Shown here: one piece after another, positions 13,413 through 62,956 of the stretch
Numbering within the stretch: position 1 is the stretch's first letter
Layout of the letters: each line of letters begins with the position of its first letter
Assembly: GCA_030603385.1 (NCBI GenBank)
Contig: JAUVXW010000015.1
Location: 1-64,000 of the forward strand
DNA from: Promethearchaeota archaeon
GTDB lineage: Archaea > Asgardarchaeota > Lokiarchaeia > Sigyniarchaeales > SOKP01
Length of the DNA: 64,000 nt
Direction: 5' to 3'
The notes under the pieces: model-generated
Database searches by the model: none
Told to the model about the DNA's origin: nothing
Seen by the model: only the letters and a program-made list of their open reading frames with translations
Position numbers and translations under genes: made by a program

Positions 13413-16400
13413 TTAAGTTTTCTTGGATTTCTTCTGAGATTTTGAATCATAATATGTTTCTTCAAGAACCCTTAAGGATTCAATTAAGGCTTTATTGGAT
13501 ATAGATTTTTGTTCATATGCTGATTTGATAACTTTTAAAAGGTATTTAGGGAATAATAGATCCATGTAAAAGTCAAACAAGAGAGCATAATACTCATTAT
13601 TTTTCTCATCTCGGAAAACCTTAATCATCTGATTGTCCCAAAGCAATTTTAAAGCAGCATATACATCTTCTACTCCCTTTATTTTAAGCTTTTCGAGATC
13701 TTGCTTTGTCACAATTGCAGTTCTTAATAATCTTAGTGTCTCATAGACGTCAGGATTTATTATTAAATTAACAATATTTAAATTGTCTTCTTTAGTAGGG
13801 CGATAACTTTGGAAGAATTTCTTTACTTCTGCTAAGTATTCTTTTGCGAACTGTGTTGGCAAGCCACGATTAATAGGATCTTTCAATAATTCAACAGGAG
13901 GAACTTTAAGCATAAAGAAATCATTGGTAAGTACAATTAATTCTGATTCTAATCCCTTTACTGTAACTTGTTTTATTATATCTTTCTTCAGAAGTTCTAA
14001 TAAAGTTGCTTCTAAATCGATAAAACCTTCAACATATTTATCTCTAAGCCATATCGTTAATTCAGATTTTGTTATTACACCAATATCTCTTAAATTATCG
14101 ATAATCATCCGTTTAATCTCATCTTGATAGTTAAGTGCTAGTATTTCCTCATCACTAAGTGATGGATATAATGATAAGCGTTGGAAAAGAGATGGGAACA
14201 TATAGAGATATGAATCATCCTCAATATTTTCTATAAGGATCCTTGAAACATCTGGTATTCCTCCCTCATAAACATCAGGATCATCTTCTAATTTTAAAAG
14301 CAAAACAAGGTAATAGCCTGTTTCGGGTCCAGTATAGTATGATAAAATATTTAGCAACCCCGCAGTCAGAGTTATTACGCCTTTTTCACCACTATATTCA
14401 TGTGTGCTGTATATTTGCATAAGCGTCTTGTCAGAAATTTCAGTTTCTTCAGGATATTTAGCTAAAATATTTGTACCAATCCTTTCGTCCCATTTCATTA
14501 GCACTAACCCTATTGGTCGAATTTCCCTTCTTTTTACTGCTTCACTTATTTTTCTTTGAACTTTAAATATTTTCTTCTCAAGTTCAATTCCAAAAGTATT
14601 TTCTATTGAAATATCAATCTTATCCCACATAGCTTTTACTCTTTCCCCTATAAAAACTTCTTTATCGCGATATAAAAGTGATTCTGAGATGAGCTTGTTT
14701 CCTTCAATTGCTTTTTTCATTGTGCGAACTTTCTTAACGAAATTGGGGATTTTAGCATTTTTATAAACTCGATATCCAACGATGCTTCCTACTATACCTA
14801 CTATTGCTGAAACGATTATTATGAAGTAAAATGTAGGTATTCCAAAGAATAGCTCCTCCATCCCAACTACAATTGTAAATGTAAATTCTCTTGAGTAGTA
14901 ATTATCTTTAGAAATATTGATTGTTCCTGTGAGAGTTTTGGAACTAAAGAATGTATCAATATTATCTGTTGGAAAGTAGAATATATAAGTACCATTGGGT
15001 AAAACAGCGATTGGATATACTTTACCCTCGAATTCTACCACGATAGTTGCATTATTCAATGATATATCCCCTTTTGTTGGATCTGTTAGCTGTATTTCAA
15101 TTAAAGCAGTCGTTCCTTTCTTTACATTTATTCGTTTATTAGAAATTATTCGATTATTATATCTTAAAGAATAGTCAATATCTCTTTTATTGACAGTTAA
15201 AGAAATCATAGCATTTTTAAATTCGTAGTTATTTTTGCCTATTGTAATAAGTAGCAAGTATTCTCCAATAGTTAGATTTTCTGTGTTGAAGTCTAAAACA
15301 TACAAATTGTCGATTGTAGATATCAATGTTCCTTGCCCACTATCAACTACATTACCTTCACTGTCATACTTCTCCCATATATATAAATATGATGTTAAAC
15401 CAGTAATTCTAGTTCCTTCCAATTCATCAGTGTATAAAAAGGTAAAATTAATAGCATCTTGAACATCAATGTTTTCAACTTTTCTAAAGAATCCAGATGA
15501 CCCATTAAGTAATGTTAAACGTTCTAATACGACCAAATCGAAATTTTTTGTTGCTGTCGCATAATGTTCTTTAGTAACTGTGAATCTTATGGTATAATCA
15601 TCAGCATCGAGTAAAGATGTATTTATAGGTTGATAATAACATCCCAAATCCTCATCATACTGAACTGTTCCATAAATAGAAGGTTTTTCTATAGAATAAG
15701 TAACTGTTCCTTTAGTCTCATAAATTTCCATTCTTGAATAGTCTGTTCTAAAATTAAGGTTGAAAATAGTTGGTTGATTTGCGTTGATAACGGCTGTATA
15801 TATCGTATCTTTATTTAGACCCTCTAATGAAAACATTCCTTCCCCGGTAATAACATCAGAAATGCTATAAGGGGTTCCCCCAATTGTAATAGTCATGGCT
15901 AATTCTGATGGGAGATAATAATCGATACCGTCAGAAATTTCACTAATCAATAATGTTGCAGCATCTTCAATCCAATCTTTCTCAACAACACTGACTTGAA
16001 AAGTTCCTCCATTGTTAAGTTCTGTCTTTGATAAATTGATTGTCTCTAGATAATGATTTTGGTAAAACTCTTGAATGTATTCAACTTTAATTATAACATC
16101 AAACATGATGTTTGGACTATTTTCTATGGTGAATAAAAACTGGTTATCTAAAGGGTAAATAATTCGATCATCTATGATTAACTTTCCATAGCCAGAACCT
16201 CCTGAATCTAGTGGATATTTAATTCCTTCATTGGTTGATATATTCAAATTAACGTCAGATAATGGATTAATTGGGCTCCAATTAGAAGTATTATAACAAT
16301 TATAGATTTCAAAAGTAACATTTTTAATTGCCCATCCTTCAGCTTCAGTTAAAAGAGACATTGCCTCGGTAATATTGAATCTTCTATATTGAACATTGAT

Positions 16401-61828: not shown

Positions 61829-62956
61829 ATGCCACATGGTTATGTTATAACTGAATGGACAGAAGATCAAGGTTTAGTTGTTAAACTTAGTTATCCAGAA
61901 AATCTCGAAATTGATCTGGATGACATGATGCGAATTTTTTATGCTCATATAACAGGAGCAGGTGAAGCTGGAAATGTTTTAGTGCGATTAGAAAAAGCAC
62001 GCTCTAATGTATCAAGTTATTTTACTGGAATGGAATCTGATATGCCTGTAATGATAAATTTAATGTTAGAATTAGGAGAAGATCCAGAAATGTTTGGTGA
62101 GGCTGTATTACAAGAAGTTAATCGAGATGTATTGAATTATTTAAAGCAGATGAGTACTAATGTATCAGAAAGTTATGAGATTCTAAAAAAAATAAAACTC
62201 TATCTAAAGAATACATTAATTCTTTTAGATCGATTAAAAAATTTATCAAAAGAGCAAAGATTAGCACAAATATATACAAGTGAAAAAGCAAGGACAATAT
62301 TAGAAGCTTTACAGGAAAAGGCTTTATCTAGAAGGGAACTACAAGGGATCATAGAAGAGAAATTACAAAAAATAATTCCAAACCTTGAATATATATTAGA
62401 TCCTTTTATTAAAACTGGATTAGTAATGCAGGATTGGGTAGAAGGTGATACTGATATAACATTATTTCTCCTAACTGATTTCGCCATTTTTAGAACTCCT
62501 GTGGCAAAATTAGTTGAGGATGCTAAGAAAAATATTCCAACCCCAGAACTCGCAACTAAATACCTTGAAGAAGTTTCTCGATTTTTTACAAAATACAAAC
62601 CTAACTTTGAAGATAATTTAAAAATCGCTCGAACTATGATGGACCCAGATAACTACGATTACATTACTTTGTTTAGGGAAAGAGCATATCCATTAAACAA
62701 GATTCCTAAAGGTCCCGGAGAGAGTATTGATCAAATTGGAAGTATATTAAAAGCTATGGAAGATGATCATATCCTTAAAGTGATTAGAGATGAGAAAGAC
62801 ACTAGATGGGTATTTTTATTAACAGATGTAATTGCAAATACGTTTTATCCAGAATATTTAATAGAAAAAATTCGTAAAGATAGAATGGAAGGAAAATTAA
62901 ATAAGGATGTCGCCATAAAACACTTAGAATTTCTTGAAAAAGTATATAAAAAATAA
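61829..62956 (+). CDS. Soluble uDENN/longin-like plus tandem winged-helix protein; homolog of the cytoplasmic module of 13413..19685
   Basis: GYVITEWTEDQG....SYPE vs GLVLMKWDERIG....KYPE; SYFTG/SYYTG; YLEEVSRFFTKYKPNFEDNL vs YLAEVKKFFQSYRPTKEDNL; KVIRDEK/KVFRDEK; start abuts the upstream stop (TAAATG). Confidence 0.85.
   Translation: MPHGYVITEWTEDQGLVVKLSYPENLEIDLDDMMRIFYAHITGAGEAGNVLVRLEKARSNVSSYFTGMESDMPVMINLMLELGEDPEMFGEAVLQEVNRDVLNYLKQMSTNVSESYEILKKIKLYLKNTLILLDRLKNLSKEQRLAQIYTSEKARTILEALQEKALSRRELQGIIEEKLQKIIPNLEYILDPFIKTGLVMQDWVEGDTDITLFLLTDFAIFRTPVAKLVEDAKKNIPTPELATKYLEEVSRFFTKYKPNFEDNLKIARTMMDPDNYDYITLFRERAYPLNKIPKGPGESIDQIGSILKAMEDDHILKVIRDEKDTRWVFLLTDVIANTFYPEYLIEKIRKDRMEGKLNKDVAIKHLEFLEKVYKK

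Follow-up and report, generated by a model that had tools for sequence, protein, structure and literature searches.

NPRL2 and NPRL3 (yeast Npr2 and Npr3) are subunits of GATOR1/SEACIT, the GTPase-activating protein (GAP) for RagA/Gtr1. Npr2/3 are described as a longin domain plus a triad of domains of the winged helix-turn-helix (wHTH) type (PMC3521125). The C9orf72/SMCR8-type GAP longins carry WD and GP motifs in the b1-b2 loop, and FLCN/SMCR8-type longins with GP and Arg motifs are already known from Asgard archaea (PMC12290439). Liu et al. (bioRxiv 10.1101/2020.10.19.343400) reported NPRL2-like Asgard longins, some standing alone and others joined to two-component domains, and multidomain longin/Vps28-C/adaptin proteins are also on record (PMC10936438). 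Longin proteins, roadblock proteins, and small GTPases number in the dozens in Asgard genomes. The small GTPase genes of MK-D1 reportedly do not, as a rule, share operons with roadblock or longin genes; published work places such genes mostly outside operons, so that genome layout gives no clue to their partners (PMC10933270). Here we describe a stretch of DNA, referred to below as the window, that comprises positions 1-64000 of one contig of a Lokiarchaeial metagenome-assembled genome (MAG; 3.9 Mb, 30% GC, 94% complete). The window encodes surface proteins with a basic tail next to the membrane, together with a module made of a longin domain and two winged helices (WH1 and WH2). The module is either fused to the surface protein, as in a giant protein of 2090 amino acids (aa), or encoded by a separate gene, as in a 375-aa protein. 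The cassette is real, strongly conserved, and built of known folds, and it is apparently undescribed as a system; what its parts bind and do is what we infer below.

The genes that encode the fused and free modules, together with the associated surface proteins and transmembrane (TM) helices, are as follows.

13413..19685, minus strand: giant fused protein, 2090 aa (signal/TM, ectodomain, one TM helix, basic tail, linker, longin-WH-WH module)
14517..14852, minus strand: TM helix of the giant (aa 1612-1635), then the tail KIPNFVKKVRTMKK and a conserved linker (aa 1636-1723)
13413..14516, minus strand: longin, WH1, and WH2 module of the giant (aa 1724-2090)
54702..58385, plus strand: surface protein 1, 1227 aa; TM helix, then the KYPPLVRKIRKL tail at 58179-58382
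58605..60149, plus strand: surface protein 2, 514 aa; TM helix, then the KYPPMVRKVRKL tail at 59910-60146
60182..61828, plus strand: surface protein 3, 548 aa; TM helix, then the KYPPTVRKIRKL tail at 61607-61825
58110-58180, 59850-59910, and 61540-61610, plus strand: TM helices of the three surface proteins, with small-xxx-small patterns
61829..62956, plus strand: free longin-WH1-WH2 protein, 375 aa, net charge -11
62975..64000 in the window, continuing to 64927, plus strand: TrmB-like protein, 650 aa

The original prediction, which was made from the sequence of the window, held that the final ~370 aa of the giant can be aligned along the full length of the free 375-aa protein, and this alignment was recovered. 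Residues 1724-2078 of the giant matched residues 2-373 of the 375-aa protein with no large gaps (BLASTP, 29% identity over 375 columns, E 4e-39), and the homology was also detected by phmmer with a library of 1.8 billion proteins (E 1.8e-27). The predicted KYPP-type tail shared by the three surface proteins could be read directly from their sequences. Specifically, the sequences after the C-terminal TM helix were, in order, KYPPLVRKIRKLKKK, KYPPMVRKVRKLRNK, and KYPPTVRKIRKLRKK, so that each helix was followed by KYPP[LMT]VRK[IV]RKL in a tail of 68-79 residues; the tail of the 1227-aa protein matched the tail profile with an E value of 4e-24. The module gene abuts the last surface-protein gene, as had also been noted: the last base of the stop codon that closes the 548-aa gene is 61828, and the 375-aa gene begins with an ATG at 61829. 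The motif of the giant spans aa 1645-1658, at the same distance from the TM helix as the motif in the three surface proteins, and the proposed juxtamembrane position was therefore correct. The proposal that this motif lies just before the module was not, since a conserved linker separates it from the module start (~aa 1724) by about 65-80 residues.

The ectodomains themselves differed. The 514-aa and 548-aa proteins were paralogues (44% identity), and the ectodomain of the 1227-aa protein was unrelated to both; conservation of the tail therefore does not depend on the ectodomain. The ectodomain of the giant was DUF2341/LamG/Ig-like and sequon-rich, with 38 sequons compared to 0 in the cytoplasmic part, and ectodomain sequon density was 2.2-3.5 N-x-S/T per 100 residues. 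The TM helices contained conserved small-xxx-small patterns (GIVGSIVG in the giant at 14781-14852, minus strand; IGAIIGL, IGSIAGL, and AAGIVGL in the surface proteins), a pattern that suggests helix-helix packing between surface proteins. No Pfam family was assigned to the module, to any of the three KYPP surface proteins, or to the 286-aa neighbor of the giant described below. The 375-aa protein had >400 close homologues, all of them "hypothetical protein" entries from Promethearchaeota MAGs.

All 6258 open reading frames (ORFs) of the source genome (genome label G000; the other contigs named below are C8, C10, and C55) were scanned with a permissive regular expression of the tail motif. Ten ORFs matched. 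Nine were TM proteins whose genes were fused to a module gene, abutted one, or lay within 11 kb of one, and the tenth was an unrelated protein with no TM helix. A further TM protein with the tail (C10:143410-147285), which the expression missed and inspection revealed, also abuts a module gene. Thus, every protein in the genome with a TM helix and the motif was beside or fused to a module, at four loci in total. The genome contained five full-length modules, plus two weak or partial matches on C55.

These genes fell into three subfamilies, and the three tail subtypes matched the three module subfamilies one to one. Subfamily A, with KIP or RIP tails, comprised the giant, in which the two parts are fused, and two pairs of genes on C10, in which they are split and each surface gene abuts a free module:

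C10:143410-147285 and C10:150108-154520: surface genes of the two split pairs

Subfamily B comprised the KYPP tails and the 375-aa module. Subfamily C comprised three genes on C8 with LKYP[KR]xVRKVRK tails, divergent from the gene for a 417-aa module. The overall tail consensus was [KR][YI]P-x2-[VI][KR][KRQ][IV]. We also considered YPP[LMT] as a YxxPhi sorting signal that would define the tails, and we rejected it, since the KIP/RIP tails of the giant and C10 proteins have no tyrosine. Two ORFs carried two complete ectodomain-TM-tail units in series (G000:C8:26915-32356, minus strand, 1813 aa, and L028:6669-9983, 1104 aa). These are surface proteins joined through the first tail, which would span the membrane several times and show two tails.

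The comparison also indicated which split genes correspond to the giant. The module of the giant was 58-59% identical to the free C10 modules compared to 29% for the 375-aa protein, and its linker (aa 1640-1723) could be aligned colinearly with the tails at the C termini of the surface proteins in the two C10 pairs. For these reasons, sequence comparison identifies the giant and the two C10 gene pairs, rather than the giant and the 375-aa gene, as the true fused and split counterparts; the 375-aa cassette, judged in the same way, is a separate, older subfamily, a paralogue. The "Rosetta-stone" argument of the original prediction therefore held in that fused and split forms both exist, and failed in naming the 375-aa gene as the split form of the giant.

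To place these loci in a wider setting, we compared them to loci in other genomes; these genomes are kin, and locus and genome counts overstate independence. Orthologous loci with upstream sequence were found in other Lokiarchaeial MAGs, and 19 of 19 carried one to three tail genes upstream of the module on the same strand. The products of the tail genes ended in YQxHFKYPPxVRKIRKLKKKV, and the nearest tail gene was 1-55 nucleotides (nt) from the module. The ectodomain genes varied between loci in number, kind, and length. Eight columns of the tail were invariant (Y1, P8, V11, R12, K13, R15, K23, and R35) and the ectodomains were just 34-78% identical. As a side observation, a Roadblock/LC7-like ORF (window 52834-53328, minus strand) that had no ATG, GTG, or TTG near its conserved N terminus shared 91-96% identity across 12 related loci and in each of them lay a few kilobases upstream of the KYPP cassette.

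Fusion was also recurrent. The module family had 236 representatives in the 1.8-billion-protein library, including long proteins with a C-terminal module. The fused relatives were 588-2548 aa long with the TM helix ~110 residues before the module, and all eight TM-bearing ones (8/8) had a TM helix and [KR]IPxF[VI]KK upstream of the module. Of 301 Asgard genomes sampled across the phylum, 218 had the module. Several families had it throughout the sample (68/68, 76/76, 19/19, and 4/4), and from others it was nearly absent (1/28, 0/11, 0/5, 1/21, and 1/11). The original prediction called for a survey of tail and module co-occurrence, and in this sample the two went together: the KYPP-tail profile matched 94 of the 301 genomes, all of them module-positive, and none of the 83 module-negative genomes. 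In the family labeled f29, the single module-positive genome also had the tail profile. Among 12 full-length module genes in five distant Asgard genomes, 7 adjoined a gene for a large single-pass protein with the tail motif after the TM helix (for example, KYPKIIRKIR, KIPFVIKKI, RIPYQIKQI, or KIPYEIKQI), in either gene order. Synteny by descent alone is hard to square with the inverted gene orders and the repeated fusions.

Other module architectures included module plus TPR, module plus SIR2-like plus TPR, and HhH/DUF4332 repeats plus WH-WH with no longin domain (P0188, P0238, P0146, P0134, and P0135). Because of these fusions and of modules with no tail-bearing neighbor, the module is not restricted to surface-protein tails; it is a general adaptor whose commonest context is the surface-protein tail, and other contexts exist. 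Two side observations concern this wider family. The SIR2/TPR fusions resemble conflict-system proteins. In addition, longin-only paralogues of 130-170 aa were present in L069 (G012:C1, about 182300-182677) and in G001:C1, and one of them lies directly beside a full module and surface gene, which makes it a possible heterodimer partner (compare FLCN-FNIP or NPRL2-NPRL3).

The original prediction described the module as uDENN/longin plus tandem WH and proposed structure searches of both modules; this description was right at the level of the fold. With an alignment of 50 sequences, which was also used for the conservation analyses below, AlphaFold2 produced a confident model of the 375-aa protein (predicted local distance difference test [pLDDT] 94.9; predicted template modeling score 0.87). 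In the model, a bbabbba domain (residues 1-110) was joined by long helices to a pair of winged helices (139-225 and 259-342). The module of the giant, modeled separately (pLDDT 88.9), was likewise a longin domain plus two winged helices. DSSP assigned both models the longin topology, with strands and helices at E4-11, E15-22, H30-41, E48-54, E59-65, and E74-81, followed by helices.

Structure comparisons supported this assignment for both modules. In a VIA-align search of ~48,000 PDB representatives, the top matches to the 375-aa model were FNIP2, FLCN, Lst4, the Lokiarchaeal protein 8yqg, and NPRL2 (Z 11.3-11.9 over ~130 residues with a root mean square deviation [rmsd] of ~3 A). A second structure comparison gave Lst4 at Z 12.4 and 8yqg at Z 12.1. 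C9orf72-SMCR8 and DENND1A followed at Z ~10.5, and the TRAPP, AP sigma, and SNARE longins were at Z 9-10; because the latter are just 1-2 Z units lower, assignment to a subclass within the longins is weak. Across solved longin domains (Lst4, FNIP2, FLCN, NPRL2, C9orf72, DENND1A, TRAPP, AP sigma, and VAMP7), the alignments covered 110-140 residues with an rmsd of ~3 A and Z 10-12.4. The best matches to the giant module were SEA-complex Npr2/3 (Z 11.5) and NPRL2 (Z 11.2). Foldseek aligned full-length NPRL2/NPRL3 chains with a probability of 0.96-0.99 and a global template modeling score of just 0.26, and the sole non-Asgard full-span match in the ESM Atlas was NPRL2, with a score of 0.37.

No DENN/dDENN domain followed the longin domain; instead, residues 139-342 formed two winged helices like those of ArsR/HxlR-type wHTH proteins. 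WH2 (257-342) had the winged helix-turn-helix fold and matched ArsR/SmtB-type regulators (SrnR, CzrA, SqrR, and HlyU) at Z 8.5-9.2. At the sequence level, the module family profile matched only wHTH regulators (PH1932, E 1e-4) and no longin proteins in the PDB, and none of the Pfam longin, uDENN, NPR2, NPR3, Folliculin, and DENN models matched any of the 50 module members at E <= 1. No Arg column reached >=60% conservation in residues 1-110 of the 50 sequences, and the only conserved Arg residues were R222 and R283, in the WH domains. Judged from this alignment, an NPRL2/FLCN-type arginine finger is missing from the longin domain. The b1-b2 loop of the longin domain did contain a conserved W-D-x3-G motif (W10 in 46/50, D11 in 39/50, and G15 in 47/50 sequences), with a variable residue after G15 and no GP; conservation of this loop suggests a specific ligand site.

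The module and tails were complementary in charge. The total charge of the module was -11, which is also the family median (longin domain, -12; WH1, -3; WH2, -5), and the tails had net charges of +10 to +14. The invariant non-basic tail positions (Y, P, P, and V) are more than a plain positive-inside signal would need. In a model of aa 1636-2090 of the giant, tail residues 11-60 had a pLDDT of 84-97, though just 8 sequences cover them, and the stretch between tail and module (71-90) had low confidence (pLDDT 50-66). Read from pLDDT alone, this is what would be expected if the tail helices packed on the module. With the charges, the invariant positions, and the model confidence in view, we consider it somewhat more likely than not that the tail binds the module.

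The genes around the giant suggested candidate partners for subfamily A.

10121..11104, plus strand: second Roadblock-Ras GTPase, 327 aa
11271..12131, plus strand: 286-aa protein of no known family, a conserved neighbor of the giant subfamily
12414..13337, plus strand: Roadblock-Ras small GTPase, 307 aa; its gene converges with that of the giant and lies 76 nt from the 3' end of the latter
19998..21953, plus strand: double small GTPase, 651 aa, Roadblock-like in its central segment; its gene diverges from that of the giant

The 307-aa GTPase matched Pfam Ras (E 4e-40), and its N-terminal match to Robl_LC7 was below threshold (21 bits, cutoff 23, E 3e-4). Its homologues were located beside fused relatives in L033, L035, L036, and L085. 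Copies of the 286-aa protein with 64-70% identity were located beside fused genes in L035, L036, and L085; in L033, a 275-aa gene with no match in the homology search occupied the position. The 286-aa protein matched only Asgard clusters in the Atlas. The 651-aa double GTPase had a 616-aa orthologue at the same position in L036. Overall, homologues of the GTPase and/or the 286-aa protein adjoined giant-type genes in five genomes (four besides the source), and one of the four was just 55% identical in the tail-module region and still had such a homologue. With 72 Ras-family matches in the 3.9-Mb source genome, GTPases on both flanks of the giant are unlikely to have arisen by chance, as far as gene context can tell. 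As a related observation, a tandem array of at least five fused giants of 2655-2678 aa each (G210:C9:430000-465000; also G204:C28) had a Roadblock-Ras GTPase and the 286-aa gene at one end. We also considered the Arf-like GTPase between the C10 pairs as a conserved partner and rejected it, since only genomes of the same genus keep it.

In the case of the KYPP cassette, the conserved neighbor was a different one. A TrmB-like coiled-coil gene was present in 16 of 16 KYPP loci. In 15 of them it was immediately downstream of the module gene, and in L028 it was located upstream of the surface gene; a paralogue (30% identity, E 3e-98) followed the C8 module. The 650-aa product in the source genome consisted of a TrmB-type wHTH domain, a coiled coil of ~250 residues, a globular region that is conserved, a linker rich in proline, and a helical domain at the end. 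It scored 27 bits against Pfam TrmB (cutoff 25.6), and its profile matched TrmB alone among PDB sequences (E 0.0017). Because the protein is acidic (-18 overall, -7 in the wHTH domain), DNA binding is doubtful. A pair of genes elsewhere in the window (46996-47996, plus strand), overlapping and encoding HEPN (173 aa) and nucleotidyltransferase (162 aa) proteins, was a typical HEPN-MNT toxin-antitoxin pair.

We propose the following model. Single-pass glycosylated surface proteins with interchangeable ectodomains would share a small-residue-rich TM helix and a strongly basic juxtamembrane helix. This helix would dock an acidic (about -11) cytoplasmic longin plus two-WH protein, made either as the C terminus of the same polypeptide or from the neighboring gene. 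The docked module would then serve as a membrane-proximal platform that recruits soluble partners. For the giant (KIP) subfamily, the partners would most likely be the neighboring Roadblock-Ras GTPases and the 286-aa protein; for the KYPP and C8 subfamilies, the partner would most likely be the TrmB-like coiled-coil protein of the same cluster. The role of such a platform might be to signal, to anchor, or to sort. As a whole, this model of docking, platform, and partners in a conserved Asgard cassette is, on balance, the account that we favor, and by a narrow measure we consider it probable.

Several observations weigh against this model. The docking of the tail was read from pLDDT only, and a basic amphipathic helix next to a TM helix could simply rest on anionic lipids. 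Adjacent genes that duplicate together could give matched tail and module subtypes without binding, and the counts from related genomes are not independent. In the distant Asgard genomes, 5 of the 12 module genes had no tail-bearing neighbor, and modules are also fused to TPR, SIR2-like, or HhH domains. As for the GTPases, the source genome had 72 Ras-family matches in 3.9 Mb, so GTPase genes are common; no GTPase gene was adjacent to the KYPP cassette; and the Arf-like GTPase between the C10 pairs was kept only within the genus.

Among the alternatives, the one that fares best is that the module is a cargo or biogenesis adaptor, in which longin-WH-WH reads the tail as a sorting signal for delivery, turnover, or clustering and no outside-in signal is involved. 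By analogy, the longin subunits of AP/COPI and the winged helices of ESCRT-II would be eukaryotic precedents. The linkage of tail and module fits this explanation equally well, and the longin domain matched AP-3/AP-5 sigma, COPI zeta/delta, the SRX domain of the SRP receptor, and SNARE longins at Z 8-11. Moreover, the module and its coiled-coil neighbor were 70-96% identical in >120 clusters, as would be expected for a housekeeping function, and the number and kind of ectodomain genes differed by locus. However, fusion would bind the adaptor permanently to one cargo, which is unusual for sorting, and the loci contained no coat, ESCRT, or Vps4 genes. ESCRT-II did not appear in the structure match lists for the module, which were filled by longin and WH2 matches and for which the WH pair was not searched alone, and the 650-aa protein matched Vps28 neither in a profile search of PDB sequences nor in Pfam. 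We regard the sorting explanation as unlikely.

A more far-reaching version of the proposed model, which enlarges on the relay idea of the original prediction, is a receptor reading in which a ligand or clustering of the ectodomain alters the hold of the tail on an NPRL2/FNIP-like longin platform that controls Roadblock-fused Ras/Rag-like GTPases, with no kinase involved. Among the neighboring gene products scanned against Pfam, none had a kinase or histidine-kinase domain. For subfamily A, a kinase-free relay to small GTPases is plausible given the conserved neighbor genes; for the 375-aa cassette it is unsupported, and the conserved link there is the TrmB-like coiled-coil gene. As a complete chain of events, the receptor reading seemed unlikely. 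The original interpretation stood in its account of module homology, fold, fused and split forms, and co-occurrence of tail and module, and did not stand in treating the 375-aa gene as the split form of the giant.

A second alternative is structural anchoring, in which the module would tie a glycoprotein coat to a sub-membrane scaffold of the 650-aa coiled-coil protein, as ERM or ankyrin proteins might, with no switch. Every KYPP cassette, and the C8 locus as well, encodes the coiled coil of ~250 residues; the presence of the cassette in all 68 genomes sampled from the family would suit such a role; and the small-xxx-small patterns (IGxxxGL and GIVGSIVG) favor helix packing. On the other hand, the giant/C10 subfamily has no coiled-coil partner gene in the source genome, a passive linker needs no longin domain, and the W-D-x3-G loop points to a specific ligand site. 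Anchoring is a distinctly unlikely explanation.

It could also be that there is no physical coupling at all. The tail would then be a lineage-specific positive-inside or lipid-binding anchor, and the genes would be neighbors by descent. The tail helix is indeed basic and amphipathic, with a hydrophobic residue every 3-4 positions, and most of the compared loci came from related genomes. Yet fusion with the same TM-tail-linker arrangement recurs in many lineages, adjacency holds in distant Asgard classes with inverted gene order, and the invariant Y, P, and V positions are not basic. In addition, a neighboring beta-helix surface protein (50961-52688) had a mere RKRKS tail. We consider the absence of coupling very unlikely. 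Least likely of all, and highly improbable, is membrane-controlled transcription of the ToxR/CadC kind, in which surface proteins tether or release DNA-binding WH domains of the module and/or its TrmB-like partner: the ArsR/SmtB likeness of WH2, the PH1932 match, the above-threshold TrmB score of the 650-aa protein, and the fusion of WH-WH to HhH motifs in some family members would fit, but the module and the TrmB-like protein are acidic, the predicted recognition helices of the WH domains are, by composition only, neutral to acidic and lack basic residues, and the WH domains of fused giants are held at the membrane.

The proposed docking model, if correct, has several consequences. It gives a large unnamed longin family a concrete candidate partner, the short conserved tail of surface glycoproteins, on the basis of recurrent fusion, tight gene linkage, and co-occurrence in most sampled Asgard lineages. 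In the giant subfamily, it also supplies candidate downstream Roadblock-Ras GTPases. If the tail does bind the module, the cassette would be the first case of a defined route that leads from the surface of Asgard cells to GTPase-platform proteins of the eukaryote-like kind and would bear on pre-eukaryotic membrane-linked signaling or sorting. If the kinase-free receptor reading were also true, the cassette would count as a prokaryotic precursor of the longin/roadblock-Rag machinery that is anchored at membranes in eukaryotes (GATOR1, FLCN-FNIP, and Ragulator) and would provide a defined upstream input for some of the many orphan Asgard GTPases. Should the binding prove not to be real, what remains is an unannotated Asgard protein family, widespread and highly conserved, for which the fold model is confident. 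Our literature search, which was incomplete in coverage and is not proof of novelty, found no account of the juxtamembrane tail, of its linkage or fusion to the module, or of the TrmB-like third gene.

Comparison with known systems showed likenesses and differences in each case. The coat adaptors (AP sigma/mu and COPI zeta/delta) and integrin-talin are similar by analogy only, in that a short tail motif on proteins with varied ectodomains is paired with one longin-fold adaptor. In AP complexes, in contrast, tail motifs bind the C-terminal domain of mu or the sigma-alpha interface inside a heterotetramer. The Asgard loci have no coat genes, and YPP[LMT] fits YxxPhi in one subfamily only, the KIP tails having no tyrosine. 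Asgard longins described previously (the NPRL2-like proteins and the Roadblock-Longin protein, PDB 8yqg) are listed eukaryotic signature proteins, and the 8yqg longin domain matched the module at Z 11.2-12.1; in the papers searched, we found no mention of a juxtamembrane tail, of fusion to surface proteins, or of this cassette.

FLCN-FNIP (Lst7-Lst4) and C9orf72-SMCR8 provided the best or tied longin matches (Lst4, 12.4; FNIP2, 11.9; FLCN, 11.4-11.9; C9orf72, 10.5-10.8), and the W-D-x3-G motif of the module has the spacing of W33-D34...G38 in human C9orf72 (PMC12290439). They differ in that winged helices, not DENN/dDENN domains, follow the longin domain in the Asgard module, where neither the GP-motif proline nor the arginine finger is conserved. 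NPRL2/3 resemble the module in layout, with an N-terminal longin domain (uDENN-type; Z 11.2-11.5) ahead of winged helices, and in length (~380 aa). They differ in several respects: none of the 50 module members matched Pfam NPR2/NPR3; rigid superposition was limited to the longin domain (scores of 0.26-0.37), and the C-terminal parts did not superpose; the Asgard module has two winged helices, not three, and no conserved arginine finger; no DEPDC5-like gene was seen in the Asgard loci; and coupling or fusion to a TM surface protein is not known for NPRL2/3. With membership in that family not established, the nearest known architecture, as judged from the structural models, was that of Npr2/Npr3.

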